From: Spirochaetia bacterium
GTDB taxonomy: Bacteria > Spirochaetota > Spirochaetia > UBA9216
DNA: 64,000 bases
Assembly (NCBI GenBank): GCA_965140585.1
Contig: OZ223272.1
Span: forward strand, 448,001-512,000
Direction of reading: 5' to 3'
In this document: positions 17,781 to 39,014 of the stretch, piece by piece
Layout of the letters: every line of letters begins with the position of its first letter
How positions within the stretch are numbered: position 1 is the stretch's first letter
Position numbers and translations under genes: made by a program
Notes under the pieces: generated by a model
Told to the model about the DNA's origin: nothing
The model's input: only the letters and a program-made list of their open reading frames with translations
Database searches by the model: none

Positions 17781-17945
17781 GTAAATAACTCCTTTGTTAA
17801 ATATTTCTCTTCGCCCGTCGGCCGGAGGTCCGGGCGTCTTACTCTTGTTGGGCTCATTGCACATAACGTCCCGGGGTTATACGACGTTCGGCAAAGCCGA
17901 ATGTGGCGCAGCCCGAAGCCCGAATGGGCGGAGCGTATAGCCCCT

Positions 17946-18350
17946 GTTATGCGACGTCGCCTTTATTAGAGAAAGATTCCGATCAATCAAACGATCTAAA
18001 TAATCTCCTCTTACCATTTCTACCCAATATTCTATTCGCCCTTTGCGACTTTCACAATCATTTTTATTTCACCTGCAAGTCAACGAGCAAAGTGAGTGTG
18101 GCAGACTTGCCAAACTGAAAAAACCTGTCATGCCCACGAAGCAGATTTTGATAATTATAAGCCAATACTTTTTCTTTAACGTCAGAACAAACATCGTCCA
18201 ACGCAACGACCTTCTTATAACAACAACCAAATCAAAATCCAAAATCTTCCTCATTCCAGGGCGAATTGAATATTGCAAACTATTTGGTAATCACTTATGG
18301 TTCGGAACTTTCTCCACCCCAAGATCATGCTCCGGCGATGTCCGCATAAC
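17946..18350. repeat. ORF-less cassette family A, copy 1
   Basis: ~405 bp unit GTTATGCGACGTCGCC...GGCGATGTCCGCATAAC between att sites. Confidence 0.9.
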
Positions 18351-18487
18351 GTTCCGGGGTTATGTGACGTACGGCTTAAGCCGTATGTGGCGCAGCCCGA
18401 GGAGCGCATAGCGACGAAGCACATAGCCCCTGTTAGACGATGTCACGAACCTTCTTCAAAGCCAAGCAACACGGATGTTGTTTGGCT

Positions 18488-18817
18488 TTAATCTATTAAC
18501 ATTTCTTGTAGTATATTCTTGACGAGTTCAACTTCTTTTTTAGTTATTTTCCCTATTTTTTTTATTAGTCTCTTCTTATCAACAGTTCGCAGCTGATCTA
18601 AAACAATCCATCCTTCTTTCTTCTCAAATTTTATTGACACCCGCGTCGGATAAGGATGTGATTTCGTAGTCATCGGAGCAATTATAATTGTCTGAATTGA
18701 CTCATTCATTTCATTTGGTGAAATCACTAAACAAGGTCTTGTCTTTTTAATTTCATGGCCAACTGTGGGATCTAAGTTTATTAAAAATACTTCATATTGA
18801 TGAATTACCATTCCCAT
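18488..18817 (-). CDS. mazF: PemK/MazF toxin (cassette 11)
   Basis: LDPTVGHEIKKTRPCLVIS, LDQLRTVDKKRL. Confidence 0.93.
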   Translation of the reverse strand: MGMVIHQYEVFLINLDPTVGHEIKKTRPCLVISPNEMNESIQTIIIAPMTTKSHPYPTRVSIKFEKKEGWIVLDQLRTVDKKRLIKKIGKITKKEVELVKNILQEMLID

Positions 18818-19053
18818 TCAAAATCATCCTGATCAGTTAAATTGTCCACAAGTAATGAATCATCCTTATTTTGATGCATCTTCATAAACTCTTCAGACCA
18901 TCCTTCTCTTGGCTTTTTCTTTATAGGTCTAATCAGTATTTCTGTATTATGCACTTCTAACTCTACTTTTTCTTCTATATTTAACTGTTGCAAAATGCTT
19001 TTAGGAATTCGTATCCCTTTTGAATTACCTATAGGAACCACTGAAACTAACAT
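18805..19053 (-). CDS. mazE: AbrB/MazE antitoxin (cassette 11)
   Basis: IGNSKGIRIPK; overlaps mazF. Confidence 0.9.
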   Translation of the reverse strand: MLVSVVPIGNSKGIRIPKSILQQLNIEEKVELEVHNTEILIRPIKKKPREGWSEEFMKMHQNKDDSLLVDNLTDQDDFEWEW

Positions 19054-19072
19054 AATTCACCTCATTATTGTA

Positions 19073-19101
19073 ATTATATAGTAATTACTCCAATTCGTCA
19101 A
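19073..19101 (-). promoter_or_regulatory. mazEF promoter/operator
   Basis: TTGACG-17-TATAAT with GTAATTAC palindrome. Confidence 0.75.
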
Positions 19102-19230
19102 TCTTTGCTTGCCAGGGATGGTAAGCATCCTCTTTCTCTTAGGTTCGTGATTTCGTCTAACGTCCCGGGGTTAAGCGAAGTTGCGCAGCAATTTAGGCGC
19201 AGGCCGAAGGGCCGGAGCCGCTTAACCCCT

Positions 19231-19634
19231 GTTATGCGACGTCGCCTTTATTAGAGAAAGATTCCGATCAATCAAACGATCTAAATAATCTCCTCTTACC
19301 ATTTCTACCAAATATTCTATTCGCCCTTGGCGACTTTCACAATCATTTTTATTTCACCAGCAAGTCAACGAGCAAAGCGAGTGTGGCAGACTTGCCAAAC
19401 GGAAAAACCTGTCATGCCCACGAAGCAGATTTTGATGATTATAAGCCAATACTTTTTCTTTAACGTCAGAACAAACATCGTCCAACGCAACGACCTTCTT
19501 CTAACAACAACCAAATCAAAATCCAAAATCTTCATCATTCCAGGGCGAATTGAATATTGTAAACTATTTGGTAATCACTTTTGGTTCGGAACTTTCTCCA
19601 CCCCAAGATCATGCTTCGGCGATGTCCGCATAAC
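19231..19634. repeat. ORF-less cassette family A, copy 2
   Basis: Near-identical to copy 1; carries a different att variant. Confidence 0.9.
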
Positions 19635-19798
19635 GTCCCGCGGTTATGTGATGTTTTGTGCTCGGCCCTACAGGCCGATTGGCAACTCTTTTGCATACAG
19701 CGCCTTTACCTCACATCTTTCTCCACTTCGCAAAAGTGATGCCAAAACAAAATATGCCGGAGGCCAAGGAGCGTTTAGCGACGCCGCACATAGCCGCT

Positions 19799-20197
19799 GT
19801 TATACGCCGTCACAAAATAAAGAAAGTTGTACATCATCTTCACAACCTAAAATTTTAGTTCACATTTCAAACTTATTTAATATTCTATTCGACCATACTG
19901 TCTTTCACAATCTTTTTTATTTACTCCGCAAAATAACGAGCTTTGCGAGTGGGCCAGTTTTGCATAAACGTTTCTGCATGCCCCAGCCCCGTACAGATTT
20001 TGATTATTCCAAAGCCAAAACTCTTTCATAGAACGTCAGAAAAAAGTCATTGTTTGAAATTTTTCTTCATCAAAACAAAAATCAAAATCTGAAATCAGAT
20101 CTTAGTCGAACAGAATATTGCCAACTTATTATTTCATTATTTAAGCGCAGCAACTTTCTTCCACCCCATATCCTTGCCCAAAGTGATGGAGTATAAC
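19799..20197. repeat. ORF-less cassette family B, copy 1
   Basis: ~398 bp unit GTTATACGCCGTCAC...GTGATGGAGTATAAC with ~178 bp att. Confidence 0.9.
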
Positions 20198-20375
20198 GTC
20201 CCGGGGTTATGTGACGTACGGCGATAGCCGTATGTGGCGCAGCCCGAGGAGCGCATAGCGACGACGCACATAGCCCCTGTTATAAGCAGTAAGCCAGGCA
20301 TCCAGACCGTCCAACGGAGTTAGGTCTGGATTCTCTCATGTCTTTGTTTTATTAACCTTACTTTCTAAGGTTAAA

Positions 20376-21326
20376 TCAATGAAATATTCCTTTATTATCA
20401 ATTTGCTCTTTTTCGAGATAGCCACCGAAAACCCATCCAATTAATTCACCTTTTTTTATATATACCCATGGGTATTCCATATCATCAATATTATAAGCTA
20501 AAGGACTTACCCCAAGCATTTGTACTTCATCATTTTCTTGAAGCAATCCAATAATATTTGAATTTGTATTTGCTTCACTTCGTATTCTTAAATTCTTTGT
20601 ATTACAATACCCTTTATATGGGCGAGAATATCTATAATCTATAGAATATGCTCCTTTACTCTTCAATATCTTTACATATTCAGAATTTTCTCCATATTTA
20701 CTAACAGCAATGGCTAAAGTTGTCTTAAAATCATTCAATAAATTGATTTTATCTATTTTTACATTCATACTAATAAATATCTCAAAAGCTTCTAAATTGT
20801 TAGCTTCTAATGCTTCTTTTAATAAATCTACACTCAAGTAATTCATACTACTTGGGTCAAATCCATTTTCTATACACAATTTTAAAAACTTATTATTTTT
20901 TTCAATGATGGAATATAAAATTAATGTTTGAGGAAGATCTTCATCTGGCAACTCATCATATAAAGGAACCGCCCCAAGATTCAAAAAAAACTGAATTAAT
21001 TCCTCATTATTATTTTGACATGCGTAATACAAAGGAGTTTTCAAAACAGGATAGTATTCTTCCTCGAAATAGTTTATTTCCAAACCATCTTCTATAAATA
21101 GTTTAACTATTTCAGTTCTATTTTTCTCAAGAGCAGTTCTAAAAAATCTTACTTTTTCTGATGGTTCAATAAAATAATTGATTCTATTCTGATTTTCAAA
21201 AATCTCCTCCATCTTCATTATATCATTTTTAACAATTGCATCTCTCACTTCATCTGAATAATTAAATCTTTCAGCATATATTATTACACCGACTAACATA
21301 AAGAATAAAATCAATATCTTTTTCAT
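20376..21326 (-). CDS. Secreted ankyrin-repeat + SH3 domain protein (cassette 14)
   Basis: Signal peptide, TPLYYAC ankyrin, NLRIRSEANTNS...GWVFGGYL SH3b. Confidence 0.85.
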   Translation of the reverse strand: MKKILILFFMLVGVIIYAERFNYSDEVRDAIVKNDIMKMEEIFENQNRINYFIEPSEKVRFFRTALEKNRTEIVKLFIEDGLEINYFEEEYYPVLKTPLYYACQNNNEELIQFFLNLGAVPLYDELPDEDLPQTLILYSIIEKNNKFLKLCIENGFDPSSMNYLSVDLLKEALEANNLEAFEIFISMNVKIDKINLLNDFKTTLAIAVSKYGENSEYVKILKSKGAYSIDYRYSRPYKGYCNTKNLRIRSEANTNSNIIGLLQENDEVQMLGVSPLAYNIDDMEYPWVYIKKGELIGWVFGGYLEKEQIDNKGIFH

Positions 21327-21489
21327 TTAATCTCCTTTTTGAAATTCAGTCTTATCGCCCGTCGGCCGGAGGCCCGGGCGTCTTCCTCTTGCCTGGCTTA
21401 TTGCTTATAACGTCCCGGGGTTATACGACGTTCGGCAAAGCCGAATGTGGCGCAGCCCGAAGCCCGAATGGGCGGAGCGTATAGCCCCT

Positions 21490-21894
21490 GTTATGCGACG
21501 TCGCCTTTATTAGAGAAAGATTCCGATCAATCAAACGATCTAAATAATCTCCTCTTACCATTTCTACCCAATATTCTATTCGCCCTTTGCGACTTTCACA
21601 ATCATTTTTATTTCACCTGCAAGTCAACGAGCAAAGCGAGTGTGGCAGACTTGCCAAACGGAAAAAACCTGTCATGCCCACGAAGCAGATTTTGATAATT
21701 ATAAGCCAATACTTTTTCTTTAACGTCAGAACAAACATCGTCCAACGCAACGACCTTCTTCTAACAACAACCAAATCTAAATCCAAAATCTTCCTCATTC
21801 CAGGGCGAATTGAATATTTCAAACTATTTGGTAATCACTTATGGTTCGGAACTTTCTCCACCCCAAGATCATGCTCCGGCGATGTCCGCATAAC
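21490..21894. repeat. ORF-less cassette family A, copy 3
   Basis: Sequence similarity to copy 1. Confidence 0.9.
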
Positions 21895-21972
21895 GTCCCG
21901 GGGTTATACGACGTTCGGCAAAGCCGAATGTGGCGCAGCCCGAAGCCCGAATGGGCGGAGCGTATAGCCCCT

Positions 21973-22377
21973 GTTATGCGACGTCGCCTTTATTAGAGAA
22001 AGATTCCGATCAATCAAACGATATAAATAATCTCCTCTTACCATTTCTACCCAATATTCTATTCGCCCTTTGCGACTTTCACAATCATTTTTATTTCACC
22101 TGCAAGTCAACGAGCAAAGCGAGTGTGGCAGACTTGCCAAACGGAAAAAACCTGTCATGCCCACGAAGCAGATTTTGATAATTATAAGCCAATACTTTTT
22201 CTTTAACGTCAGAACAAACATCGTCCAACGCAACGACCTTCTTCTAACAACAACCAAATCAAAATCCAAAATCTTCCTCATTCCAGGGCGAATTGAATAT
22301 TGCAAACTATTTGGTAATCACTTATGGTTCGGAACTTTCTCCACCCCAAGATCATGCTCCGGCGATGTCCGCATAAC
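21973..22377. repeat. ORF-less cassette family A, copy 4
   Basis: Tandem with copy 3. Confidence 0.9.
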
Positions 22378-22523
22378 GTCCCGCGGTTATATGACGTTCG
22401 GCGTAGCCGAATGTGCCGCAGGCCGAGCCCGAATGGGCGAAGCAAATAACCGCTGTTATATGCTTTGGGCTCAACATCCAGACCGTTCAACGGAGTTAGG
22501 TCTGGATTCTTCTTTCTTTAAAA

Positions 22524-22817
22524 TTAACTAATCTTTCTTTTATCTACTAATTGTCCTGTAATATATTTATGAAGAACACTTTTTACAAAGGTTTGATATT
22601 TCAACCCTTCACTATCTGCGAATTCTTTAATCTTTTCCAATTCAAACTCATCAATTCTAATATTCATTTTTGTTTCTTTTTTTCTAAATTCACGAGCAGC
22701 ACTTTTAAACATTTTCTGTCTTTCAACCGTAGGCTTAGAAATATTTTGAATATCTATACTTTTTAAAGATTCTGCTAAATCTTTTTCTTCATCATCTAAA
22801 TATTTACCATCATTCAT
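22524..22817 (-). CDS. CopG/BrnA-like antitoxin (cassette 17)
   Basis: MNIRI...GLKYQTFVKSVLHKY RHH-like; overlaps the toxin gene. Confidence 0.8.
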   Translation of the reverse strand: MNDGKYLDDEEKDLAESLKSIDIQNISKPTVERQKMFKSAAREFRKKETKMNIRIDEFELEKIKEFADSEGLKYQTFVKSVLHKYITGQLVDKRKIS

Positions 22818-23088
22818 CTTTTACCTCCTCTATTAAATATAAGAAATCTCTATTTGGAAAAATTGTCTTTAAAAAAATTTCTTCTTCATCTAATACATAC
22901 GGGACACAATATGTATAATCATTTAAATTTACTACCATAATCATTTGATTTGGGTATTTTTCCCGGTTCGGATGCTGAAAATCTAAAAGAACGCCTTCAT
23001 TCTCTATTACTTCAATTATCTGATTAAATGTTATTCCTCGAGTCTTAAATAACAACTCATTCTTTTCAGCATTAAAATTGAACACCAT
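22810..23088 (-). CDS. BrnT-like toxin (cassette 17)
   Basis: FNAEKNELL..TRGITF, HPNREKYPNQ, LKTIFP; start moved to ATG at 23088. Confidence 0.8.
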   Translation of the reverse strand: MVFNFNAEKNELLFKTRGITFNQIIEVIENEGVLLDFQHPNREKYPNQMIMVVNLNDYTYCVPYVLDEEEIFLKTIFPNRDFLYLIEEVKDE

Positions 23089-23094
23089 ATTATC

Positions 23095-23124
23095 AGTATA
23101 CCCCCATTGTGCGCACATAGTCAA
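23095..23124 (-). promoter_or_regulatory. TA promoter with palindromic operator; probably leaderless
   Basis: TTGACT-18-TATACT, TGTGCGCACA palindrome in the spacer, ATG 6 nt after the -10. Confidence 0.65.
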
Positions 23125-23375
23125 TCTATTTTAATTTAATCTAATCTTGACTCTACGCCCGTCGGCCGGAGGTCCGGGCGTCTTTTTCTTGTTGAGCCCA
23201 TTGCATATAACGTCCGCGGTTATGTGATGTTTTGTGGTCGGCCCTACAGGCCGATTGGCAACTCTTTTGCATTCAGCGCCTTTACCCTCTATCTTGCTAC
23301 TACTTCGCAAAAGTGATGCCAAAACAAAATATGCCGCAGGCCAAGGAGCGTTTAGCGACGCCGCACATAGCCGCT

Positions 23376-23772
23376 GTTATACGCCGTCACAAAATAAAGA
23401 AAGTTGTTTATCATCATCACAATCTAAACAATTCTTTTACTTTTCAAATATCTATAATATTCTATTCGACCATACTGACTTTCACAATCTTTTTTATTTA
23501 CTCCGCAAAATAACGAGCTTTGCGAGTGGGCCAGTTTTGCATAAACGTTTCTGCATGCCCCAGCCCCGTACAGATTTTGATAATTCCAAAGCCAAAACTC
23601 TTTCATAAAACGTCAGAAAAAAGTCGTTGTTTGAATTTTTTCTTCATCAAAATAAAAATCAAAATCTGAAATCAGATCTTAGTCGAACAGAATATTGCCA
23701 ACTTATTATTTCATTATTAAGTGCAGCAACTTTCTTCCACCCAATATCCTTGCCAAAGTGATGGAGTATAAC
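23376..23772. repeat. ORF-less cassette family B, copy 2
   Basis: Similar to B1. Confidence 0.9.
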
Positions 23773-23850
23773 GTCCCGGGGTTATACGACGTTCGGCAAA
23801 GCCGAATGTGGCGCAGCCCGAAGCCCGAATGGGCGGAGCGTATAGCCCCT

Positions 23851-24255
23851 GTTATGCGACGTCGCCTTTATTAGAGAAAGATTTCGATCAATCAAACGAT
23901 CTAAATAATCTCCTCTTACCATTTCTACCCAATATTCTATTCGCCCTTTGCGACTTTCACAATCATTTTTATCTCACCTGCAAGTCAACGAGCAAAGCGA
24001 GTGTGGCAGACTTGCCAAACGGAAAAAACCTGTCATGCCCACGAAGCAGATTTTGATAATTATAAGCCAATACTTTTTCTTTAACGTCAGAACAAACATA
24101 GTCCAACGCAACGACCTTCTTCTAACAACAACCAAATCTAAATCCAAAATCTTCCTCATTCCAGGGCGAATTGAATATTGCAAACTATTTGGTAATCACT
24201 TATGGTTCGGAACTTTCTCCACCCCAAGATCATGCTCCGGCGATGTCCGCATAAC
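23851..24255. repeat. ORF-less cassette family A, copy 5
   Basis: Similar to A1. Confidence 0.9.
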
Positions 24256-24454
24256 GTCCCGGGGTTATGTGACGTATGGCGAAAGCCGTATGTGGCGGAG
24301 CCCGAGGAGCGTATAGCGACGAAGCACATAGCCCCTGTTATCTGCAGTGTTTCCGCCTCTTCGGCCAGACCGTTCGGCGGAGCCAGGACTGGCCTCTTTC
24401 CTAATCTATTCTCCTCTTCTCAGCTTTTCAAATTCATAAACACTTTTGAATTAA

Positions 24455-24931
24455 TTAAAAATATATTGATAACCCTAACGGTAAGACGAAGAAACTATCT
24501 TCTCCACCATCATAAATTTCATTTGTGATATAATTAGCTTTTAAATACATGAATAATTTCCATTTTTCAACAATCATAAACTGAAGCTGCATTCCACCAA
24601 TCAAGTACAGCTCACTAAACGCATTTTCTCCCGGATGAAAATCAGTTCCAATTCCAGCTTGTAATAATGCATTCAATCTTGGAGTAAACTCTAACGAATA
24701 TCGATAAGTTGTAGAAATTATTGATTGTGGACCCCAATGCCCTGATAACATTAAAATATTATTATTAATTTTATATCCAACACAAGTTTCAGAATATGCA
24801 AAAACACCATCAAAAGATTCTTCTTCAAGTGGTATACTTGTAACTCCTCCTAATTCAAAAACAACCTTATTTTCTCCGAAAGCGAACGAATTACTCAACA
24901 ATAACATTAAAAAAACAAATACCTTTTTCAT
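24455..24931 (-). CDS. Secreted beta-barrel-like protein (cassette 20)
   Basis: Signal peptide, amphipathic beta-strands, C-terminal YF. Confidence 0.65.
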   Translation of the reverse strand: MKKVFVFLMLLLSNSFAFGENKVVFELGGVTSIPLEEESFDGVFAYSETCVGYKINNNILMLSGHWGPQSIISTTYRYSLEFTPRLNALLQAGIGTDFHPGENAFSELYLIGGMQLQFMIVEKWKLFMYLKANYITNEIYDGGEDSFFVLPLGLSIYF

Positions 24932-25214
24932 AATTTTTCTTCCTCTATAATTTTTATAAATTTGTATTTAATATATCACCTTTAATTAAAGATGCTTGAA
25001 ATTTCTATATTTTCTTCGCCCGTCGGCCGGAGGTCCGGGCGTCTTCCTCTTGGCGGAAACATTGCAGATAACGTCCCGGGGTTATGTGACGTTCGGCAAA
25101 GCCGAATGTGGCGGAGCCCGAGGAGCGTATAGCGACGAAGCACATAGCCCCTGTTATCTGCTTTGTTTCCGCCTCTTCGACCAGACCGTACGGTGGAGCC
25201 AGGGCTAGTCTCTT

Positions 25215-26090
25215 TTAACCCTTAACTACAATCTTTGTTCCAACCCCACCTTCTTTATATATTTCTCTTAATTCTTCTCTAAAATAATCTATTCCAAGAT
25301 CTCCAGAACTATGCATTGGATATAACATTTTTAAAGGTAGCTCTTGAAATCTTTTTTTAGTAAATTCTAATAATTCCTCATTGGCCTGATATAATTGTAA
25401 ACCACCGATTATAGCAATTATATTATCATCACCATTCTTCTTAATATGTTCTATAGTATTTACTATTCCCGAATGACAACAACCACATACTATGATTTTT
25501 TTATTTTCTTCAAGTTCAATCACCAAAGAAATATCATCATCTATCTCATCCTGTTTTTCTTTTCCATTTTCTCTTGTAACAACTTGTTTTAATATTGGAT
25601 TGAGATCTTCTACCTTATTCGTCCTTGATATTTCTCCAGTAGTCCAGATATATTCATTCAAATTATAACGTTCTTTACTCTCGTATATTCTTCCCCTATT
25701 TCTTAGCTCATTAATTTTGGATAATTCTTTAATTCCAACGTTATTTTCTGAGCCATCATCTAATTTTAAGATTTTTTCGTTAAATATGCCTGGATGGCAG
25801 ATTATTTTTGTTTTTTCATTTGAATTATTGTAAGCATATAATAGCCCTCCTGTATGATCAAAATGACCATGACTAAGAACTATATAATCTATATCACTAA
25901 TCTCTAAACCCAGCTTTTTGAGATTAACTTCTAATCTTTCATTTTCAGGTCCTGTATCAAACAATATTTTAATAATGCTTCCATCATCGAATAAGTTTTC
26001 TATTAATGCAGAAAAACCACCGGGAGCATATTCATCTCCAATTAAGGATTTATTATCAACTATAATTGTAATATTCACTTTTTTGATCAT
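25215..26090 (-). CDS. MBL-fold metallo-hydrolase (cassette 21)
   Basis: LFDTG, SHGHFDHTGG, GCCHSG motifs. Confidence 0.88.
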   Translation of the reverse strand: MIKKVNITIIVDNKSLIGDEYAPGGFSALIENLFDDGSIIKILFDTGPENERLEVNLKKLGLEISDIDYIVLSHGHFDHTGGLLYAYNNSNEKTKIICHPGIFNEKILKLDDGSENNVGIKELSKINELRNRGRIYESKERYNLNEYIWTTGEISRTNKVEDLNPILKQVVTRENGKEKQDEIDDDISLVIELEENKKIIVCGCCHSGIVNTIEHIKKNGDDNIIAIIGGLQLYQANEELLEFTKKRFQELPLKMLYPMHSSGDLGIDYFREELREIYKEGGVGTKIVVKG

Positions 26091-26280
26091 TTATATACTC
26101 ACCTCTTTTCCATATTCTATGTACCAATAATTTAAATTACACTTTCTAATAGCCCGTCGGCCGGAGGTCCGGGCGTCTTTCTCTTGGCGGAAACATTGCA
26201 GATAACGTCCCGGGCATATGCGAAGTTGGCCGCAGGCCAATTTGGGCGAAGGGGCTTGACCCCGTAGCCGCATGTGCCCT

Positions 26281-26685
26281 GTTATGCGACGTCGCCTTTA
26301 TTAGAGAAAGATTCCGATCAATCAAACGATCTAAATAATCTCCTCTTACCATTTCTACCCAATATTCTATTCGCCCTTTGCGACTTTCACAATCATTTTT
26401 ATTTCACCTGCAAGTCAACGAGCAAAGCGAGTGTGGCAGACTTGCCAAACGGAAAAAACCTGTCATGCCCACGAAGCAGATTTTGATAATTATAAGCCAA
26501 TACTTTTTCTTTAACGTCAGAACAAACATCGTCCAACGCAACGACCTTCTTCTAACAACAACCAAATCAAAATCCAAAATCTTCCTCATTCCAGGGCGAA
26601 TTGAATATTGCAAACTATTTGGTAATCACTTATGGTTCGGAACTTTCTCCACCCCAAGATCATGCTCCGGCGATGTCCGCATAAC
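26281..26685. repeat. ORF-less cassette family A, copy 6
   Basis: Similar to A1; third att variant. Confidence 0.9.
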
Positions 26686-26848
26686 GTCCCGGGGTTATGT
26701 GACGTACGGCGAAGCCGTATGTGGCGCAGCCCGAGGAGCGCATAGCGACGATGCACATAGCCCCTGTTATCTGAAGTGCCCCCGCTCTTCAACCCAACCG
26801 CACGGCGGAGTCAAGGTTGGGTTTCTTTGAACATCTTCAACATTTCTT

Positions 26849-27376
26849 TTAATCAATTATTTTCCCCATCAATAACGCTCCATAGTATCTTCCATTTATT
26901 AAGAACTCACGCTTTTGATTTCCTTCTACCTCAAAACCAATTTTTTCATATAATTTAACAGCCCTGAAATTATCTTCTTTTACTTTTAAATTAATCTTAG
27001 TTTTATCATTCTGTTTAGCCCATAATAATAGAGAAGAAATCATTTCAGTTGCAATCCCTTCTCCCCAATATTGCTTTAAAACATAAACACTAAACTCACC
27101 AACATGTTTATTTCTTTTTCGCCCACCTGATATAAAATATAAACTTCCTATAATTTCGTCCTTATATTCTGCAACTATACAATAATGATTTGAGCTATCT
27201 ATACAATCCTGAACAAGTTCCTTTTCTCTTTCAAATGTTGATATTATTTCTCCAGCACTAAAAGATAATTCATCTGATTCAGTTGCAATTTTATCCATTA
27301 AGATTTTTCTCTTCTCGATATCGTATGATTCAATCTTTCTAATATTATAATCCATTTCTTCTTCTTTTTTATTCAC
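26849..27376 (-). CDS. GNAT acetyltransferase, RimJ/RimL-like (cassette 23)
   Basis: YWGEGIA, NFRAVKLYEKIGF. Confidence 0.88.
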   Translation of the reverse strand: MNKKEEEMDYNIRKIESYDIEKRKILMDKIATESDELSFSAGEIISTFEREKELVQDCIDSSNHYCIVAEYKDEIIGSLYFISGGRKRNKHVGEFSVYVLKQYWGEGIATEMISSLLLWAKQNDKTKINLKVKEDNFRAVKLYEKIGFEVEGNQKREFLINGRYYGALLMGKIID

Positions 27377-27740
27377 TCTCAGATTTTACCATTTTTTTTG
27401 AAATAATCTAAAACTCTTTTTCGCCCGTCGGCCGGAGGTCCGGGCGATTTCTCCCAAGGGGGCATTTCAGATAACGGCCCCAGCATAACCGAAGTTGAAG
27501 TGCAACCAAAGGAGTGTTTTGCCCAAAGAGCAAAACCGACTGTCCCTGCTCTCCTTCTCCGCAAGCTTCAATTTGGGTGGAGGCCGAATGGCCGGAACCG
27601 GTTATGGTGTGTTATGTGCTTTGAGCCCGACATCCAGACCGTTCAACGGAGTTAGGTCTGGATTCTTCATTTATCCAGCTTAAAATTACATTTAATGAAA
27701 TTAAAAACATCAAATAATTTTCTTATAAACTGTATCTTTT

Positions 27741-28622: not shown

Positions 28623-28879
28623 TTCATTAACCCCTTCCTTTATTTATAATCTTTTCTCTTCGCCCGTCGGCCGGAGGTCCGGGCGTCTTCTTCTTGTCGG
28701 GCTCATTGCACATAACGTTCCGGGGTTATACGACGTTCGGCGCAGCCGAATGTGGCGCAGCCCGGAGCCCGAATGGGCGGAGCGTATAGCCCCTGTTATG
28801 TTCAGTAAAAAGGCAGGCCTCCAACTTTAAAGGAGAACTTGTACACGGATGTACAAGTTCTCTCTTTTCATCTTCAAAT

Positions 28880-29566: not shown

Positions 29567-29803
29567 TTTCTCATTATACCTTTTTTGGGCCAGGACGGCC
29601 CAAAAACACCCTCCGAAGCCGCCTTTTTATTGAACATAACGTCCGCGGTTATGTGATGTTTTGTGGTCGGCCCTACAGGCCGATTGGCAACTCTTTTGCA
29701 TTCAGCGCCTTTACCCTCTATCTTTCTCCATTTCGCAAAAGTGGTGACAAAACAAAATATGCCGCAGGCCAAGGAGCGTCTAGCGACGCCGCACATAGCC
29801 GCT

Positions 29804-30202
29804 GTTATACGCCGTCACAAAATAAAGAAAGTTGTACATCATCTTCACAATCTAAACATTTCTTTCACATTTCAAACTTCTTTAATATTCTATTCGACCA
29901 TACTGACTTTCACAATCTTTTTTATTTACTCCGCAAAATAACGAGCTTTGCGAGTGGGCCAGTTTTGCATAAACGTTTCTGTATGCCCCAGCCCCGTACA
30001 GATTTTGATAATTCCAAAGCCAAAACTCTTTCATAGAACGTCAGAAAAAAGTCATTGTTTGAAATTTTTCTTCATCAAAACAAAAATCAAAATCTGAAAT
30101 CAGATCTTAGTCGAACAGAATATTGCCAACTTATTATTTCATTATTTAAGCGCAGCAACTTTCTTCCACCCCATATCCTTGCCCAAAGTGATGGAGTATA
30201 AC
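29804..30202. repeat. ORF-less cassette family B, copy 3
   Basis: Similar to B1. Confidence 0.9.
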
Positions 30203-30271
30203 GTCCCGGGGTTAAGCGAAGTTGCGCAGCAATTTAGGCGTAGGCCGAATGGCCGGAGCCGCTTAACCCCT

Positions 30272-30674
30272 GTTATGCGACGTCGCTTTTTATTAGAGAA
30301 AGATTCCGATCAATCAAGTGATCTAAAAGAATCTCCACTTCTTATTTCTACCCAATATTCTATTCGCCCTTTGCGACTTTCTCAATCATTTTTATTTTAT
30401 CTGCAAGTCAACGAGCATAGCGAGTGAAGCAGACTTGCTGAACGGAACAACCTGCTGCGCCCGCGAAGCAGATTTTGATAATTATAAGCCAATACTTTTT
30501 CTTTAACGTCAGAACAAACATCGTCCAACGCAACGACCTTCTTCTAACAACCAAATCAAAATCCAAAATCTTCCTCATTCCAGGGCGAATTGAATATTGT
30601 AAACTATTTGGTAATCACTTGTGGTTCGGAACTTTCTCCACCCCAAGATCATGCTCCTGCGATGTCCGCATAAC
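30272..30674. repeat. ORF-less cassette family A, copy 7 (most divergent)
   Basis: Clustered substitutions in the left half. Confidence 0.88.
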
Positions 30675-31062
30675 GTCCCGGGGTTATATGACGTTTTTAT
30701 TTTTCTTAATTTTACCACCAATTACCCGTATTTACCAATTATAAACTATTGCTTCATGTCTGTGCATTTAACGACGATTTGAGTAGCAAAATCGGCCGAG
30801 TCTTCGAGGCATGGCGCAGTTCTGGAACGTAGCGCGATCAGCGCGAAGTGTCTTTAGCCAGAACTGTGACAAAGATTTTGACTACTCCAAATCTCTTGTT
30901 AAATGCTTACACCCAACTTACCCAAATCATAAAATAAAAATGTGGCGCAGCCCGAGGAGCTTATAGCGACGAGCAAATAACCCCTGTTATAGGCAGTAAG
31001 CGCCTCTTTGATTACATGTAGTGAGGCACGGATGCCGAACGGTAATCTTGCTATCTTTTCTG

Positions 31063-32271: not shown

Positions 32272-32494
32272 TTTATATATCCTTCATTCTTAAATGTTTG
32301 AGCCATGGACGGCTCAAACTCTTATTCTTAATTACTCTTGGCGCTTATTGACTATAACGTTCCAGGGTTATACGACGTTCGGCAAAGCCGAATGTGGCGC
32401 AGCCCGGAGGCCGTATGGCCGGAGCGAATAACCCTTGTTATAGGCAGTAAGCGCCTCTTTGATTACATGTAGTGAGGCACGGATGCCGAACGGA

Positions 32495-32702
32495 AATCTT
32501 TCTTCTTAATCTTTCTTCTTAATCTTTCTTCTTAATCTTTCTTCTTAATCTTTCTTCTTAATCTTTCTTCTTAATCTTTCTTCTTAATCTTTCTTCTTAA
32601 TCTTTCTTCTTAATCTTTCTTCTTAATCTTTCTTCTTAATCTTTCTTCTTAATCTTTCTTCTTAATCTTTCTTCTTAATCTTTCTTCTTAATCTTTCTTC
32701 TT
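32495..32702. repeat. 13-mer tandem repeat (AATCTTTCTTCTT) x16
   Basis: 208 bp counted directly. Confidence 0.96.
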
Positions 32703-33191
32703 AACAACATCTTCATAAATCATTGAAACAGCATCTGGAATGGATAAGTTTGAATTAATTCTGCTCTCAGAAATAATTCCAATCAAATCTTCTTCTCTCC
32801 ACCACTTCCTCATATCCTCTTCTCCAAAATCAGAACTATTTGATTTCGATTTATGTCGTCGTATTGTCTCTTCAAAAGATAAATCATAATAATAAGCAAA
32901 TATTTCAGAGTCAAATTCTTCTATTGCTTTTTTAAATAATCTAAGATAATAATCTGAGTATAAAATACCTTCTAAAATTACAAATTCTGAATTTCTCTTT
33001 CCATATTTAATTAATTCCTCTAAAAGTGGGATTGCCTTATTTTCAATTCTATCATGAACCCATAACATCTCTCTTCTTATATAATCCTGAGAAATCATCA
33101 TAGTATTTCGACCCAATTTTCTTTGTAATGATTTTGCTAAGGAAGTTTTTCCACTTCCTGAATTACCTCTAATAATTATTAGCTTTGACAT
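32688..33191 (-). CDS. P-loop (AAA_33-like) kinase, copy 1 (cassette 29)
   Basis: IIIRGNSGSGKT Walker A, VILEG. Confidence 0.85.
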   Translation of the reverse strand: MSKLIIIRGNSGSGKTSLAKSLQRKLGRNTMMISQDYIRREMLWVHDRIENKAIPLLEELIKYGKRNSEFVILEGILYSDYYLRLFKKAIEEFDSEIFAYYYDLSFEETIRRHKSKSNSSDFGEEDMRKWWREEDLIGIISESRINSNLSIPDAVSMIYEDVVKKKD

Positions 33192-33379
33192 CTACTTTTT
33201 ATTTCCCTCTTAGAATCCGCCACGGAAGGCGGATTTCTTTCTTCTCGAAAAATCTTGGCGCTTATTGCCTATAACGTTCCAGGGTTATACGACGTTCGGC
33301 AAAGCCGAATGTGGCGCAGCCCGGAGGTCGTATGGCCGGAGCGAATAACCCTTGTTATAGGCAGTAAGCGCCTCTTTGA

Positions 33380-33913
33380 TTACATGTAGTGAGGCACGGA
33401 TGCCGAACGGAAATCTTTCTTCTTAACAACGTCTTCATAAATCATTGAAACAGCATCTGGAATGGATAAGTCTGAATTAATTCTGCTCTCAGAAATAATT
33501 CCAATCAAATCTTCTTCTCTCCACCACTTCCTCATATCCTCTTCTCCAAAATCAGAACTATTTGATTTCGATTTATGTCGTCGTATTGTCTCTTCAAAAG
33601 ATAAATCATAATAATAAGCAAATATTTCAGAGTCAAATTCTTCTATTGCTTTTTTAAATAATCTAAGATAATAATCTGAGTATAAAATACCTTCTAAAAT
33701 TACAAATTCTGAATTTCTCTTTCCATATTTAATTAATTCCTCTAAAAGTGGGATTGCCTTATTTTCAATTCTATCATGAACCCATAACATCTCTCTTCTT
33801 ATATAATCCTGAGAAATCATCATAGTATTTCGACCCAATTTTCTTTGTAATGATTTTGCTAAGGAAGTTTTTCCACTTCCTGAATTACCTCTAATAATTA
33901 TTAGCTTTGACAT
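33380..33913 (-). CDS. P-loop kinase, copy 2, with 10-aa C-terminal extension (cassette 30)
   Basis: Single 13-mer unit, so no TAA is formed; ends FRSASVPHYM. Confidence 0.85.
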   Translation of the reverse strand: MSKLIIIRGNSGSGKTSLAKSLQRKLGRNTMMISQDYIRREMLWVHDRIENKAIPLLEELIKYGKRNSEFVILEGILYSDYYLRLFKKAIEEFDSEIFAYYYDLSFEETIRRHKSKSNSSDFGEEDMRKWWREEDLIGIISESRINSDLSIPDAVSMIYEDVVKKKDFRSASVPHYM

Positions 33914-34133
33914 CTACTTTTTATTTCCCTCTTAGAATCCGCCACGGAAGGCGGATTTCTTTCTTCTCGAAAAATCTTGGCGCTTATTGCCTATAACGTT
34001 CCAGGGTTATACGACGTTCGGCAAAGCCGAATGTGGCGCAGCCCGGAGGCCGTATGGCCGGAGCGAATAACCCTTGTTATAGGCAGTAAGCGCCTCTTTG
34101 ATTACATGTAGTGAGGCACGGATGCCGAACGGA

Positions 34134-34276
34134 AATCTTTCTTCTTAATCTTTCTTCTTAATCTTTCTTCTTAATCTTTCTTCTTAATCTTTCTTCTTAA
34201 TCTTTCTTCTTAATCTTTCTTCTTAATCTTTCTTCTTAATCTTTCTTCTTAATCTTTCTTCTTAATCTTTCTTCTT
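34134..34276. repeat. 13-mer tandem repeat (AATCTTTCTTCTT) x11
   Basis: 143 bp counted directly. Confidence 0.96.
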
Positions 34277-34765
34277 AACAACATCTTCATAAATCATTGA
34301 AACAGCATCTGGAATGGATAAGTTTGAATTAATTCTGCTCTCAGAAATAATTCCAATCAAATCTTCTTCTCTCCACCACTTCCTCATATCCTCTTCTCCA
34401 AAATCAGAACTATTTGATTTCGATTTATGTCGTCGTATTGTCTCTTCAAAAGATAAATCATAATAATAAGCAAATATTTCAGAGTCAAATTCTTCTATTG
34501 CTTTTTTAAATAATCTAAGATAATAATCTGAGTATAAAATACCTTCTAAAATTACAAATTCTGAATTTCTCTTTCCATATTTAATTAATTCCTCTAAAAG
34601 TGGGATTGCCTTATTTTCAATTCTATCATGAACCCATAACATCTCTCTTCTTATATAATCCTGAGAAATCATCATAGTATTTCGACCCAATTTTCTTTGT
34701 AATGATTTTGCTAAGGAAGTTTTTCCACTTCCTGAATTACCTCTAATAATTATTAGCTTTGACAT
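34262..34765 (-). CDS. P-loop kinase, copy 3 (cassette 31)
   Basis: Protein identical to copy 1. Confidence 0.85.
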   Translation of the reverse strand: MSKLIIIRGNSGSGKTSLAKSLQRKLGRNTMMISQDYIRREMLWVHDRIENKAIPLLEELIKYGKRNSEFVILEGILYSDYYLRLFKKAIEEFDSEIFAYYYDLSFEETIRRHKSKSNSSDFGEEDMRKWWREEDLIGIISESRINSNLSIPDAVSMIYEDVVKKKD

Positions 34766-34927
34766 CTACTTTTTATTTCCCTCTTAGAATCCGCCACGGA
34801 AGGCGGATTTCTTTCTTCTCGAAAAATCTTGGCGCTTATTGCCTATAACGTCCCGGGGTTATACGACGTTCGGCAAAGCCGAATGTGGCGCAGCCCGAAG
34901 CCCGAATGGGCGGAGCGTATAGCCCCT

Positions 34928-35328
34928 GTTATGCGACGTCGCCTTTATTAGAGAAAGATTCCGACCAATCAAACGATCTAAATAATCTCCTCTTACCATT
35001 TCTACCCAATATTCTATTCGCCCTTTGCGACTTTCACAATCATTTTTATTTTACCTGCAAGTCAACGAGCAAAGCGAGTGTGGCAGACTTGCCAAACGGA
35101 AAAACCTGTCATGCCCACGAAGCAGATTTTGATAATTATAAGCCAATACTTTTTCTTTAACGTCAGAACAAACATCGTCCAGCGCAACGACCTTCTTTTA
35201 ACAACCAAATCAAAATCCAAAATCTTCCTCATTCCAGGGCGAATTGAATATTGTAAACTATTTGGTAATCACTTGTGGTTCGGAACTTTCTCCACCCCAA
35301 GATCATGCTCCTGCGATGTCCGCATAAC
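34928..35328. repeat. ORF-less cassette family A, copy 8
   Basis: Similar to A1 with small indels. Confidence 0.9.
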
Positions 35329-35406
35329 GTCCCGGGGTTATACGACGTTCGGCAAAGCCGAATGTGGCGCAGCCCGAAGCCCGAATGGGCGGAGCGTATA
35401 GCCCCT

Positions 35407-35809
35407 GTTATGCGACGTCGCCTTTATTAGAGAAAGATTCCGATCAATCAAACGATCTAAATAATCTCCTCTTACCATTTCTACCCAATATTCTATTCGC
35501 CCTTTGCGACTTTCACAATCATTTTTTTTCACCTGCAAGTTAACGAGCAAAGCGAGTGTGGCAGACTTGCCAAACGGAAAAACCTGTCATGCCCACGAAG
35601 CAGATTTTGATAATTATAAGCCAATACTTTTTCTTTAACGTCAGAACAAACATCGTCCAACGCAACAACCTTCTTCTAACAACAACCAAATCAAAATCCA
35701 AAATCTTCCTCATTCCAGGGCGAATTAAATATTGCAAACTATTTGGTAATCACTTATGGTTCGGAACTTTCTCCACCCCAAGATCATGCTCCGGCGATGT
35801 CCGCATAAC
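35407..35809. repeat. ORF-less cassette family A, copy 9
   Basis: Similar to A1 with small indels. Confidence 0.9.
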
Positions 35810-35974
35810 GTCCGCGGTTATGTGATGTTTTGTGGTCGGGCCCTACAGGCCGATTGGCAACTCTTTTGCATTCAGCGCCTTTACCCTCTATCTTGCTACT
35901 ACTTCGCAAAAGTGGTGACAAAGCAAAATATGCCGCAGGCCAAGGAGCGTTTAGCGACGCCGCACATAGCCGCT

Positions 35975-36372
35975 GTTATACGCCGTCACAGAATAAAGAA
36001 AGTTGTACATCATCTTCATAATCTAAACATTTATTTCACATTTCAAACTTCTTTAATATTCTATTCGACCATACTGACTTTCACAATCTTTTTTATTTAC
36101 TCCGCAAAATAACGAGCTTTGCGAGTGGGCCAGTTTTGCATAAACGTTTCTGCATGCCCCAGCCCCGTACAGATTTTGATTATTCCAAAGCCAAAACTCT
36201 TTCATAGAACGTCAGAAAAAAGTCATTGTTTGAAATTTTTCTTCATCAAAATAGAAATCAAAATCTGAAATCATATCTTAGTCGAAGAGAATATTGCCAA
36301 CTTATTATTTCATTATTAAGCGCAGCAACTTTCTTCCACCCAATATCCTTGCCCAAAGTGATGGAGTATAAC
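35975..36372. repeat. ORF-less cassette family B, copy 4
   Basis: Similar to B1. Confidence 0.9.
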
Positions 36373-36622
36373 GTCCGTGGTTAAGCGAAGCTGATGCGCA
36401 ACTAAAGGAGTGTTTTGCGAATGCGCAAAACCGACTGACCCTGCTCTACTTCTCCGTAAGCTTCAGTTTGGGTGAAAGCGCCATGGCGCTTTCACCGCTT
36501 AACCATTGTTATGTGCTTTGAGCCCGACATCCAGACCGTTCAACGGAGTTAGGTCTGGATTCTTCTTTTCTTTTCCCAGGATTCTGAAAATAATCAATAC
36601 TGCTGTAAACACGTATTATGTT

Positions 36623-37201
36623 TTATAATCCTATTACTCTATTCCAATCTGCAATATACATATAAATTCTTTGAAATTCTGATGGTAGTAGCATTCTATT
36701 ATGTGCTATAAAATTTCTTGTTTTTTCAAGTTCATCCATTCTTTGTTTTAACCAATGTTGCGATGGTATCAAGGTTTCAAAAAAATGCCAAAACTCAATC
36801 ATAATTTGAGACAGCATTCCAAAATCTATAAAACCAAGAAGATCAGATTTTTCACCTTCTAACCAACTATCTTTTAAAGCGGATTCCTGACGTCTTTGAG
36901 CATGATCTTTTATTCTATTTGGAATCGAATCCCACCAATTTACCCCGATATTTTCCTGTAATGTTTCTCGAATTAGATCTCTTATTTCATTTTCAAAACA
37001 AAATATTAAACTATATAAACGAGACATTTCTAGTGCTTTATTTCTCCTATTAATCGAGAAAGGAGAGATAACCTCATTTGTTAAATCTATCTCAGTTCTC
37101 GAATCAGAAGCCCCTATTTGTATTCCTGCTTTTTGAAATTTATTTGCTTCAGATTCAAACATTAACCCTCGAAAAAGATAATCTCTTAAATCTTTAGTCA
37201 A
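36623..37201 (-). CDS. Swt1-like HEPN domain protein (cassette 35)
   Basis: FENEIRDLI..L....G.NWW, RNFIAH (RxxxxH). Confidence 0.8.
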   Translation of the reverse strand: MTKDLRDYLFRGLMFESEANKFQKAGIQIGASDSRTEIDLTNEVISPFSINRRNKALEMSRLYSLIFCFENEIRDLIRETLQENIGVNWWDSIPNRIKDHAQRRQESALKDSWLEGEKSDLLGFIDFGMLSQIMIEFWHFFETLIPSQHWLKQRMDELEKTRNFIAHNRMLLPSEFQRIYMYIADWNRVIGL

Positions 37202-37814
37202 TTAAATGCTCCTTAACACTTTTAAATATTGCGTTATAAACTTCTATATCTTTTGTTGCTGGTAAATGTATCTGAATATTATAATGTAATGAAGTTTGAC
37301 TGATCTTCCTTTCAATTGACTCAATTTTTTCTGGCTCGATTTCTTCTTTCTCATTATCATTATCTTCTACTATTTTTGTCTCTTCAACTACATCAGAATT
37401 TATATCTGCAAATTCTAATAGTGAATAAAATGTTTTCATCATCAATTCTGCATTGCGTTCTGAAGTATTATGAGTACTTTTAAACTTACCTTTTATTAAT
37501 TCTTTATCTTTATCTTCAGGATATCTGCTAATAGTAAAAATATCCGAATATGCCTCTTTAATTGCTTTGCCCAAGATTTTTCGTGATAAAGCTTCATTTC
37601 TAAATTCTTTATATTCATCAGTTGGTGATCCATCCTCTGTTAAAAACCCTAAAGCTTTTAATAATGGAATAAATGCTCTATGATTAGTCGAAGTAAATCC
37701 TATATCTTTCAAATGCTGATTAGTAAATTTCCCAGGAGCTTGTCCTTGTTTTATTTTATTAAAAAAATCTCCTAATTGACCATAAACTTGCAGCGGAATA
37801 TTTGCCAAACTCAT
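37194..37814 (-). CDS. DUF5343 domain protein (cassette 35)
   Basis: APGKFT..HLKDIGF, LKALGFLTEDGSPT, YNIQIHLPAT. Confidence 0.8.
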   Translation of the reverse strand: MSLANIPLQVYGQLGDFFNKIKQGQAPGKFTNQHLKDIGFTSTNHRAFIPLLKALGFLTEDGSPTDEYKEFRNEALSRKILGKAIKEAYSDIFTISRYPEDKDKELIKGKFKSTHNTSERNAELMMKTFYSLLEFADINSDVVEETKIVEDNDNEKEEIEPEKIESIERKISQTSLHYNIQIHLPATKDIEVYNAIFKSVKEHLID

Positions 37815-38132
37815 ATTCTCTCCCTTTATTTAAATTATTTCATATATATAACATTATAACGCTAAAATAATAATTTGGATCCTTAAAAATCACAACTTAA
37901 ACATTCTCTCTTCGCCCGTCGGCCGGAGGTCCGGGCGTCTTCCTCTTGTCGGGCTCATTGCACATAACGTCCCGCGGTTATGTGATGTTTTGTGCTCGGC
38001 CCTACAGGCCGATTGGCAACTCTTTTGCATTCAGCGCCTTTACCCTCTATCTTTCTCCATTTCGCAAAAGTGGTGACAAAACAAAATATGCCGCAGGCCA
38101 AGGAGCGTCTAGCGACGCCGCACATAGCCGCT

Positions 38133-38531
38133 GTTATACGCCGTCACAAAATAAAGAAAGTTGTACATCATCTTCACAATCTAAACATTTCTTTCACATT
38201 TCAAACTTCTTTAATATTCTATTCGACCATACTGACTTTCACAATCTTTTTTATTTACTTCGCAAAATAACGAGCTTTGCGAGTGGGCCAGTTTTGCATA
38301 AACGTTTCTGCATGCCCCAGCCCCGTACAGATTTTGATTATTCCAAAGCCAAAACTCTTTCATAGAACGTCAGAAAAAAGTCGTTGTTTGAAATTTTTCT
38401 TCATCAAAACAAAAATCAAAATCTGAAATCAGATCTTAGTCGAACAGAATATTGCAAACTTATTATTTCATTATTTAAGCGCAGCAACTTTCTTCCACCC
38501 CATATCCTTGCCAAAAGTGATGGAGTATAAC
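38133..38531. repeat. ORF-less cassette family B, copy 5
   Basis: Most similar to B3. Confidence 0.9.
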
Positions 38532-38609
38532 GTCCCGGGGTTATACGACGTTCGGCAAAGCCGAATGTGGCGCAGCCCGAAGCCCGAATGGGCGGAGCGT
38601 ATAGCCCCT

Positions 38610-39014
38610 GTTATGCGACGTCGCCTTTATTAGAGAAAGATTCCGATCAATCAAACGATCTAAATAATCTCCTCTTACCATTTCTACCCAATATTCTATT
38701 CGCCCTTTGCGACTTTCACAATCATTTTTATTTCACCTGCAAGTCAACGAGCAAAGTGAGTGTGGCAGACTTGCCAAACTGAAAAAACCTGTCATGCCCA
38801 CGAAGCAGATTTTGATAATTATAAGCCAATACTTTTTCTTTAACGTCAGAACAAACATCGTCCAACGCAACGACCTTCTTATAACAACAACCAAATCAAA
38901 ATCCAAAATCTTCCTCATTCCAGGGCGAATTGAATATTGCAAACTATTTGGTAATCACTTATGGTTCGGAACTTTCTCCACCCCAAGATCATGCTCCGGC
39001 GATGTCCGCATAAC
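38610..39014. repeat. ORF-less cassette family A, copy 10 (first cassette of the array)
   Basis: Shares diagnostic variants with A1. Confidence 0.9.

Follow-up and report, generated by a model that had tools for sequence, protein, structure and literature searches.

Here, we describe two related families of gene-less cassettes, A and B, in a 64,000-nucleotide (nt) stretch of a Spirochaetia bacterium genome (GenBank assembly GCA_965140585.1, contig OZ223272.1, positions 448,001 to 512,000 of the forward strand). We call this whole stretch the window and give positions in its own numbering, unless a contig is named. A and B occur 15 times in a single integron-like array and constitute a real, selected, non-coding family of structured cassettes, whose fold may act at the level of DNA or of RNA. 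Judged by their sequence, they belong to a known kind, the gene-less (promoter) cassettes, and the conserved fold that spans each of them is a new trait within that kind. The account that we favour, and hold tentatively, is that A and B are mobile promoter cassettes with a strand that folds along its entire length, probably while single-stranded in the course of recombination. An earlier inspection of the letters alone (the sequence-only reading) had offered four explanations: a structured non-coding RNA (ncRNA), a single-strand origin or priming element, a promoter cassette, and a selfish mini-element.

The array comprises attC-like sites, all imperfect palindromes in a single orientation, from 7968 to 38614 of the window, and its GC content is low (0.33-0.40 vs 0.42-0.52 outside it in the window). 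An nhmmer profile grown from one such site found 33 sites on contig C9 and one elsewhere in the genome; two more divergent attC-like sites lie at 27471-27613 and 36368-36513. A solitary site of the C9 type is found on another contig, outside the array (G000:C1:859303-859385). The long open reading frames (ORFs) between the attC-like sites are on the minus strand, which is the cassette sense strand. A tyrosine recombinase gene (39080-40153, minus strand) heads the array in cassette orientation, and an attI-like junction (39010-39082, minus strand) lies between its stop codon and the first cassette, A10. From the recombinase gene to position 17863, 28 cassettes can be counted by their attC-like sites, and 15 of these are A (ten) or B (five); neither family occurs among the cassettes at 7968-17862. 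The 15 copies form eight clusters (of 2, 3, 2, 1, 2, 2, 2, and 1 members), each followed by one to four gene cassettes (1, 4, 3, 2, 1, 1, and 1 between successive clusters). The cargo of the array includes mazEF, an ankyrin/SH3 protein, a PF00144 serine-hydrolase-type protein, and a metallo-hydrolase-fold protein.

The boundaries of the units show what they are. Read on the minus strand, each unit consists of the crossover, the body, and its own attC-like site, so ordered, and every body is flanked by two such sites. The units are cut precisely at the AAC/GTT crossover, and their boundary (G/TT of the R' box) is that of an integron gene cassette. All 20 attC-like sites examined have the ATAAC/GTTAT boxes and 10-bp inner helix of an attC-type boundary, and all 20 have a 4-nt bulge in the plus-strand 5' arm. 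Homology of A10 to A1-A9 stops directly after GCATAAC, at the point from which the attI-like junction extends, and B copies with differing right-hand neighbours diverge at the same crossover point. Because these breakpoints coincide at the crossover, A and B are cassettes in the integron sense.

The sequence-only reading had counted ten A and five B copies, on one strand and all inside the array, and BLAST, whole-genome BLAST, and an nhmmer A/B profile agree with that count, the profile giving exactly 15 matches at E<=10 in the 4.85-Mb genome. The A bodies (391-395 nt, all on the minus strand) lie at 17951-18345 (A1), 19236-19629 (A2), 21495-21889 (A3), 21978-22372 (A4), 23856-24250 (A5), 26286-26680 (A6), 30277-30669 (A7), 34933-35323 (A8), 35412-35804 (A9), and 38615-39009 (A10, adjoining the attI-like junction). 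The B bodies (387-389 nt, likewise on the minus strand) lie at 19804-20192 (B1), 23381-23767 (B2), 29809-30197 (B3), 35980-36367 (B4), and 38138-38526 (B5). A3-A4 and A8-A9 are tandem pairs, A7 is the most divergent copy in the window (91%), and A1, the 28th cassette, is 100% identical to A10, the first. The two families are colinear, as the sequence-only reading had held, with a core about 70% alike and the motif blocks that it had listed common to both. Seven of the ten A bodies have an attC-like site of one type (that of cassette A1 at 17863-17950, minus strand), A2 and A7 have a second, and A6 has a third, which is also that of both copies in a sister-species genome; given these several types on A bodies, body and site must have been re-assorted. 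All five B copies have one long (~174 nt) type (that of cassette B1 at 19630-19803, minus strand).

Within the body lies a set of nested helices, P2-P5. RNAalifold recovers them on either strand (17 sequences for the plus strand, namely ten A, two from the sister genome, and five B; 14 for the minus strand), at the positions that the sequence-only reading had proposed. In A1, the P2 arm at 17969-17981 pairs with 18303-18314 (in B1, 19820-19829 with 20151-20160), and the P3 arm at 18025-18041 pairs with 18259-18275 (in B1, 19879-19893 with 20104-20118). P4 is a local hairpin at 18075-18110, in which 18075-18081 pairs with 18104-18110 (in B1, 19928-19934 with 19957-19963), and the P5 arm at 18144-18152 pairs with 18231-18239 (in B1, 19994-20004 with 20081-20091). 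Across 40 scored pairs, 30 are invariant, five have changed on both sides and still pair, and three show one-sided changes to G-U. Altogether, 99.2% of cells are paired, vs 32-52% when the partner is slid by one to three columns, a control that flatters the fold because the structure was derived from the same sequences.

The positions of the substitutions give a stronger argument. Among four A lineages (A1, A7, and the two sister-genome copies, G1a and G1b), 85 of 388 columns vary, and the 80 stem columns include none of these (binomial P=3e-9); the five B copies have 32 variable columns, again with none in stems (P=5e-4). Between A1 and B1, 142 of 371 aligned columns differ (38%), and the 13 that fall in stems are accounted for by five double compensations and three wobbles. 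Among the ten recent A copies of the window, six of 45 variable columns lie in stems, which is not significant. The compensatory changes claimed by the sequence-only reading are thus present in five pairs between A and B, all on the single A/B split, which makes them few as independent events. P2-P5 are kept by strong purifying selection and compensatory changes.

Unpaired sequence is conserved as well. The 22-nt loop of P4 holds the invariant AACGAGC-NNN-GCGAGTG, and this motif and ACGTCAGAA, both unpaired, are invariant across A and B. The apical loop enclosed by P5 (18170-18180, with equivalents in all A and B bodies) contains AACGTCAGAA (TAACGTC in A), which repeats 6-7 nt of the attC-like crossover box ATAACGTC; this resemblance may be chance.

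The outermost helix, P1 (in A1, 17951-17961 with 18334-18345), had been taken by the sequence-only reading as part of the A/B fold, and this does not hold: P1 is a property of the cassettes of this array generally. Complementary ends that are specific to the cassette occur in each of the 30 single cassettes tested, whether or not they code for protein, and these 30 span 17 distinct end families. The mean energy of a 20-nt end duplex is -20.1 kcal/mol for a cassette's own ends vs -8.1 kcal/mol for the ends of different cassettes, and only 0.3% of 786 foreign end pairs reach the own-end median. The canonical integron that this genome carries on contig C6 (12 cassettes) is without terminal stems (own ends -5.1 vs foreign -3.5). 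Terminal stems that abut the crossover and covary cassette by cassette are hard to explain other than by single-strand pairing of the recombination substrate. The repeats that form them are about 15-20 bp long and lie just inside the ATAAC/GTTAT boxes (e.g. 20284-20306 with 21385-21406, and 18436-18455 with 19138-19157); a G-T or T-T irregularity recurs in them about 6 nt from the crossover box.

A second conserved feature is a promoter-like motif of the sigma-70 type. On the minus strand of all 15 window copies, TTGTGA (TTGAGA in A7) is followed by a 17-nt spacer and TAGAAT and is preceded by AATAAAAA(T/A)GA. In A1, the motif occupies 18029-18057 (-35 at 18057-18052, -10 at 18034-18029), with an A-rich tract just upstream; in B1, it occupies 19882-19910 (-35 at 19910-19905, -10 at 19887-19882). 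The pattern TTGNNN-17-TAGAAT with the A-rich tract occurs 15 times in the window, always in A or B, and not once on the other strand. TTG, the 17-nt spacing, and TAGAAT are kept in both sister-genome copies, and the spacer differs in sequence between A and B while its length is constant. The motif is directed down the array, so that the attC-like site of its cassette lies ahead of it, followed by the next cassette. Since the -10 hexamer lies inside the P3 5' arm (in plus-strand coordinates), part of the invariance of P3 may stem from the promoter. Among the options of the sequence-only reading, the promoter cassette is the one best supported by sequence, with this downstream-pointing motif in 15 of 15 copies and both sister copies, and it has published precedent: promoter activity was measured on the sense strand for most of 29 gene-less Vibrio cassettes (PMC11014356) and for ORF-less cassettes assigned to Treponema (PMC6557892).

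Beside this motif stands another promoter-like site. A mazE/mazF (PemK-like) toxin-antitoxin cassette (18488-19053, minus strand) lies between A1 and A2, and its site at 19101-19073, TTGACG-17-TATAAT, is near-consensus (11/12), which suggests that such motifs are typical of host promoters. In a Frpo-type hairpin promoter, the -35 and -10 are both rebuilt as a duplex within one hairpin stem of single-stranded plasmid DNA. We rejected that comparison for A and B: their -35 is unpaired and has no complementary partner in the 3' arm, and P3 takes in no more of the motif than the -10 and part of the spacer.

How these features might work together can be put as a proposal. A and B cassettes would switch on promoter-less cassettes behind them, and their helices would act on single-stranded cassette DNA, extending the terminal stem that is common to all cassettes of the array. 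With the body freed from coding, the whole cassette strand could collapse into one branched rod; when the A1 or B1 cassette is folded as a circle, attC, the crossover helix, P1, and P2-P5 join without a break into a single branched rod, in which 58-65% of the bases are paired. Within the array, the rod would bring the two flanking recombination sites together, and in the excised circle, it would lengthen the attC stem. Easier excision and re-insertion at the attI-like site might then give A and B a higher turnover, and we propose that they hold 15 of the 28 recombinase-proximal positions because they are unusually easily cut out and reinserted. The identical first and 28th copies fit this turnover, as do the clusters, which resemble repeated insertions at the head of the array. 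Integron attC sites are reported to recombine as folded single strands, with more excision when the recombining strand is exposed (PMC13108822). The selfish mini-element of the sequence-only reading finds a place in such a scheme, being consistent with the copy number, the identical first and 28th cassettes, and a fold that continues the common terminal stem.

Several observations weigh against this account. A structural role in DNA leaves the near-invariant sequence of P3 and P5 and the invariant unpaired loop motifs unexplained. The minus strand can form one more hairpin, at its 5' side, which includes G-U pairs and two compensations and suits RNA, and for P2-P5, wobble counts and folds point to both strands. 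For a promoter role, the tandem A-A and A-B pairs are redundant; the motif matches 9/12 of the consensus, and such matches occur at about the chance rate in AT-rich DNA (eight found vs 5.8 expected in 2.5 kb). The weight of the motif therefore comes from its conservation, and the blocks that carry it would be conserved under other readings too. The sister genome has only two copies, 10-11 kb from its recombinase, so that amplification is not a constant trait. Finally, the adjoining recombinase is without the domain that reads folded attC in known integron integrases, and for this reason, the single-strand mechanism is here an assumption.

The most serious rival, unlikely on the whole and yet with an appreciable share of the probability, is a structured RNA on the sense (minus) strand: either an element within long array transcripts, acting in cis in processing, stability, or insulation, or a large ncRNA with a function of its own, for which the promoter motif may or may not matter. 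It keeps this share because the invariance of P5 and of the loop motifs is unexplained by the single-stranded-DNA account, and invariant unpaired loop motifs are found in many structured RNAs. The compensatory changes and strong stem conservation suit it equally, and the RNAalifold consensus is slightly better on the minus strand (-42.2 kcal/mol, 56 pairs, eight compensated) than on the plus strand (-35.0 kcal/mol, 48 pairs); the 5' hairpin and two additional pairs in P5 depend on G-U pairing that the minus strand alone allows. The structured ncRNA of the sequence-only reading survives in this form and has lost its preference for the plus strand: G-T pairs do not favour that strand in P2-P5, where a hand count gives three wobbles that need plus and four (in P3 and P5) that need minus. 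The layout of the cassette tells against an RNA. The fold spans the first to the last bases of the body and leaves no room inside for a promoter and terminator to frame it, and the upstream neighbour varies; the sole conserved promoter motif would start transcription downstream of P3, P4, and P5; no helix is followed by a terminator-like tail; and the outermost helix is common to protein-coding cassettes and abuts a DNA crossover point. Rfam, moreover, gave no match at gathering scores over the 64 kb of the window and none at E<=1 over 17800-20300.

Some further ideas were rejected. A group I or II intron, a ribozyme, and a riboswitch found no Rfam match in those searches. Paired operators for a DNA-binding protein would not be expected to show matched double changes in both arms, including those of a local hairpin, without base pairing. 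Folding energy was discarded as evidence, as control gene cassettes give z-scores from about +1.0 to -7.6 (12 shuffles each), overlapping those of A and B.

It is improbable that A and B are plain promoter cassettes whose long-range helices lack a function of their own, being remnants of their origin or mere support for the terminal stem. In favour of this are the motif conserved in all copies, the published precedent, and the folding of control gene cassettes, which likewise comes out well below that of shuffled sequence. Motif and A-rich tract together, however, account for only ~45 of ~390 nt; substitutions avoid stem columns (0 of 85 in the A lineages, 0 of 32 in B) while loops diverge freely, and all five double-changed pairs stayed paired.

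More improbable still is a working plus strand, in the form of an antisense or trans-acting small RNA (sRNA) or of a single-strand replication or priming signal. Some strand indications do lean that way: the single-sequence z-score of A1 is stronger on plus (-5.3 vs -3.5), three helix-end wobbles require plus, and G-T pairs favour plus over minus by 18 to 3 in the attC-like sites and by 14 to 5 in the terminal stems, mostly at one homologous position. An ORF-less Xanthomonas cassette encoding a trans-acting sRNA offers a precedent (cited in PMC6557892). Against this, A and B have no plus-strand promoter motif in common, B1 folds better on minus (-3.9 vs -2.7), and the four wobbles in P3 and P5 require minus. 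The origin or priming element of the sequence-only reading has found no support of its own; nothing in A or B resembles known priming signals, and the Rfam searches are blank.

As for coding, the sequence-only reading had noted that apparent ORFs are broken by indels between copies, and they are: a 1-nt indel at column 173 of the A alignment affects four of the ten window copies, further 1-nt indels occur in A7 and A9, and A differs from B by many 1-, 4-, and 5-nt indels. That reading had also left room for a conserved small ORF; one was looked for, and none common to A and B was found among the ORFs of at least 25 amino acids (aa) listed in 13 copies. DNA blocks common to A and B are read in differing frames. 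A 25-aa ORF is present in six of the eight A-family copies listed and a 50-aa ORF in all five B copies; the longest minus-strand ORF within a body (69 aa) is not kept in A2, A7, A8, G1b, or B. Plus-strand ORFs extend into the adjoining attC, and one plus-strand frame of A1 is open for 122 codons. Substitutions are flat by codon position (25/19/17 for A1/G1b, 10/11/10 for A1/G1a, and 45/51/46 for A1/B1), and Pfam and NCBIfam gave no match at E<=1 in nine read-through frames (six of A1 and three of B1, with stops as X). By the published rule (no ORF over 210 bp and no conserved peptide), A and B are gene-less. That a small protein or a decayed protein gene explains the conservation is very improbable, the 25-aa, 50-aa, and 122-codon frames notwithstanding, since no ORF is kept between A and B, 1-nt indels shift the frame of the common blocks, codon periodicity and database matches are absent, and conservation follows the helices and not any reading frame.

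The recombinase sets the array apart from canonical integrons. Its best model is the XerA-type NF040815 (229.4 bits, above the cut-off of 220), and it falls below the cut-off of the integron-integrase model TIGR02249 (192.8 bits vs 265). In an alignment with VchIntIA (2a3v), the 62 residues of that protein at the place of the IntI-specific insertion face only 21 in the recombinase, which has about 75 extra residues at its N terminus; the IntI-specific extra domain by which an array-heading integrase is recognised is not present. A canonical IntI (374.7 bits) is encoded on contig C6 (G000:C6:916643-917902), divergently from its own low-GC array, which has a different attC type of ~130 nt. A second genus has homologues of the Xer-like recombinase in four genomes, with full-length identities of 52-57%; in the three of these genomes that were examined, sites of the same attC type follow each homologue, oriented as they are here. 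The two types can meet in one site: at 30670-30990, a C9-type attC-like site carries an inverted C6-type attC in its loop, and the array of the sister genome (G001) has four split attC matches of ~320 nt with the same spacing, in one of which (L002:780-930) a C6-type site is seen by eye.

Two side observations, a recombinase free of the IntI insertion that adjoins such arrays in both genera and the presence of terminal stems on every cassette, suggest an integron-like system which the usual definitions of an integron would not count as complete. A bolder version, which we consider rather unlikely, is that this is a distinct integron-like system with an Xer-like recombinase, read in cassette direction, in which each cassette pairs its ends across the crossover and folding of the whole cassette strand, beyond that of attC, is part of the recombination substrate. 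A and B would then be self-paired rods that have shed their genes and carry an outward promoter, selfish but useful passengers multiplying in the array.

Among genomes, A and B were found only in this one and in the sister-species genome G001 of the same genus, which has two diverged tandem A copies (G1a and G1b). This distribution comes from pattern and BLAST searches, by which distant relatives could be missed. BLAST of A1 and B1 in 60 relatives gave a match in G001 only. The exact pattern AATATTCTATTCG-gap-AACGAGC, searched in one genome per species, gave 13 stretches, of which the G001 contig alone fits the A/B profile and 12 are chance; the P3 pattern in metagenome contigs gave one stretch, an unrelated coding sequence without a profile match. 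Nothing was found with the P4 motif at up to three mismatches in 400 other genomes of the phylum, with the P4 motif in viral contigs, with blastn against plasmids, or with the A/B profile on the arrays of three related genomes. Among four other sequencing runs, X2 (same organism label) contains both A and B, and X4 (a plastisphere metagenome) contains one A-like contig of 503 nt; X3 and X5 contain attC-like and mazEF parts only, and the parts that they leave uncovered are no evidence of absence.

The gene cassettes of the array share further elements. Seven begin, on the minus strand, with a common ~65-nt leader that holds a GC-rich hairpin (GCCCGTCGGCCGGAGGTCCGGGCGTC on the plus strand), at 17798-17869, 21342-21413, 23142-23213, 25003-25074, 26137-26208, 28647-28718, and 37899-37970; on the plus strand, this leader is terminator-like, T-rich tail included. 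Of the seven cassettes that bear it, five lie directly downstream of A or B, and the sister genome has the leader too (L002:2740-2790). Several gene cassettes end in a common hairpin, ATCCAGACC...GGTCTGGAT, just inside the terminal repeat (20265-20340, 22441-22516, 27597-27672, and 36494-36569). Given the shared leader and trailer hairpins, leader, attC-like site, and trailer can be taken as one conserved ~240-nt repeat. Three consecutive cassettes at 32354-34844 have near-identical ORFs of 167-177 aa, and runs of a 13-nt tandem repeat lie at ~32495-32872 and 34134-34446. The cassette at 16377-17864 encodes a protein of 495 aa that contains a PF00144 domain (beta-lactamase-family serine hydrolase), and the one at 25215-26090 encodes a 291-aa metallo-beta-lactamase-fold protein (both minus strand); both are family-level matches that imply no function.

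A considerable fraction of the cassettes in chromosomal integron arrays have no gene, and some of these have only recently been shown to be promoters. In A and B, the part that is not promoter is clearly selected for base pairing, which the promoter idea alone leaves unexplained. Should the fold act on single-stranded DNA, A and B would be the first example of a cassette cargo formed so as to aid its own recombination, and they would offer a simple handle on the way in which excision rates depend on the distance and folding between attC sites. Should it act as RNA, they would represent a large structured RNA that is new and moves in the form of an integron cassette.

Among known systems, A and B are most like the promoter cassettes of Vibrionaceae superintegrons (Blanco et al. 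2024, PMC11014356) and the ORF-less cassettes of Treponema-type arrays (Tansirichaiya et al. 2019, PMC6557892), which are gene-less, ~400-670 bp long, and housed in long chromosomal arrays. Their activity is mostly on the sense strand and starts away from the 5' end of the cassette, and in the Treponema-type arrays, the recombinase gene has the same direction as the cassettes, as here. In contrast to those cassettes, promoter activity of A and B is predicted from a conserved motif. The accessible texts of both papers mention neither conserved secondary structure (the term 'secondary structure' occurs 0 times) nor amplification to half of the recombinase-proximal array, and our literature search, which covered abstracts and selected passages, returned no description of a covarying cassette-spanning fold in gene-less cassettes.

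The sRNA-Xcc1 of Xanthomonas, a trans-acting sRNA cited in PMC6557892, is likewise encoded by an ORF-less, non-coding integron cassette and functions at the RNA level; unlike it, A and B show no framed RNA gene. The DUF1874 motif (Weinberg et al. 2017, PMC5737381) is multistem and recurs between consecutive genes, and its authors discuss it as possibly an unusually complex single-stranded-DNA attC site; that motif is a candidate recombination site between genes, whereas the A/B fold is cassette cargo and has no Rfam match in the window. A and B resemble miniature inverted-repeat transposable elements (MITEs) in being short, non-coding, and multi-copy, with inverted termini and the potential to form a long hairpin. 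We rejected that assignment, as the 15 copies are confined to a single array, share one orientation, and are bounded precisely by attC crossovers, and the genome has no dispersed copies. With integron attC sites, finally, the array shares imperfect palindromes, paired core boxes (here ATAAC/GTTAT), unpaired bases in one arm, and one preferred strand; the helices of A and B are nested immediately upon this structure. An attC site measures 57-141 nt and stands at the end of its cassette; here, by contrast, pairing crosses the crossover into the body in all cassettes of the array and, in A and B, runs through the whole 390 nt.

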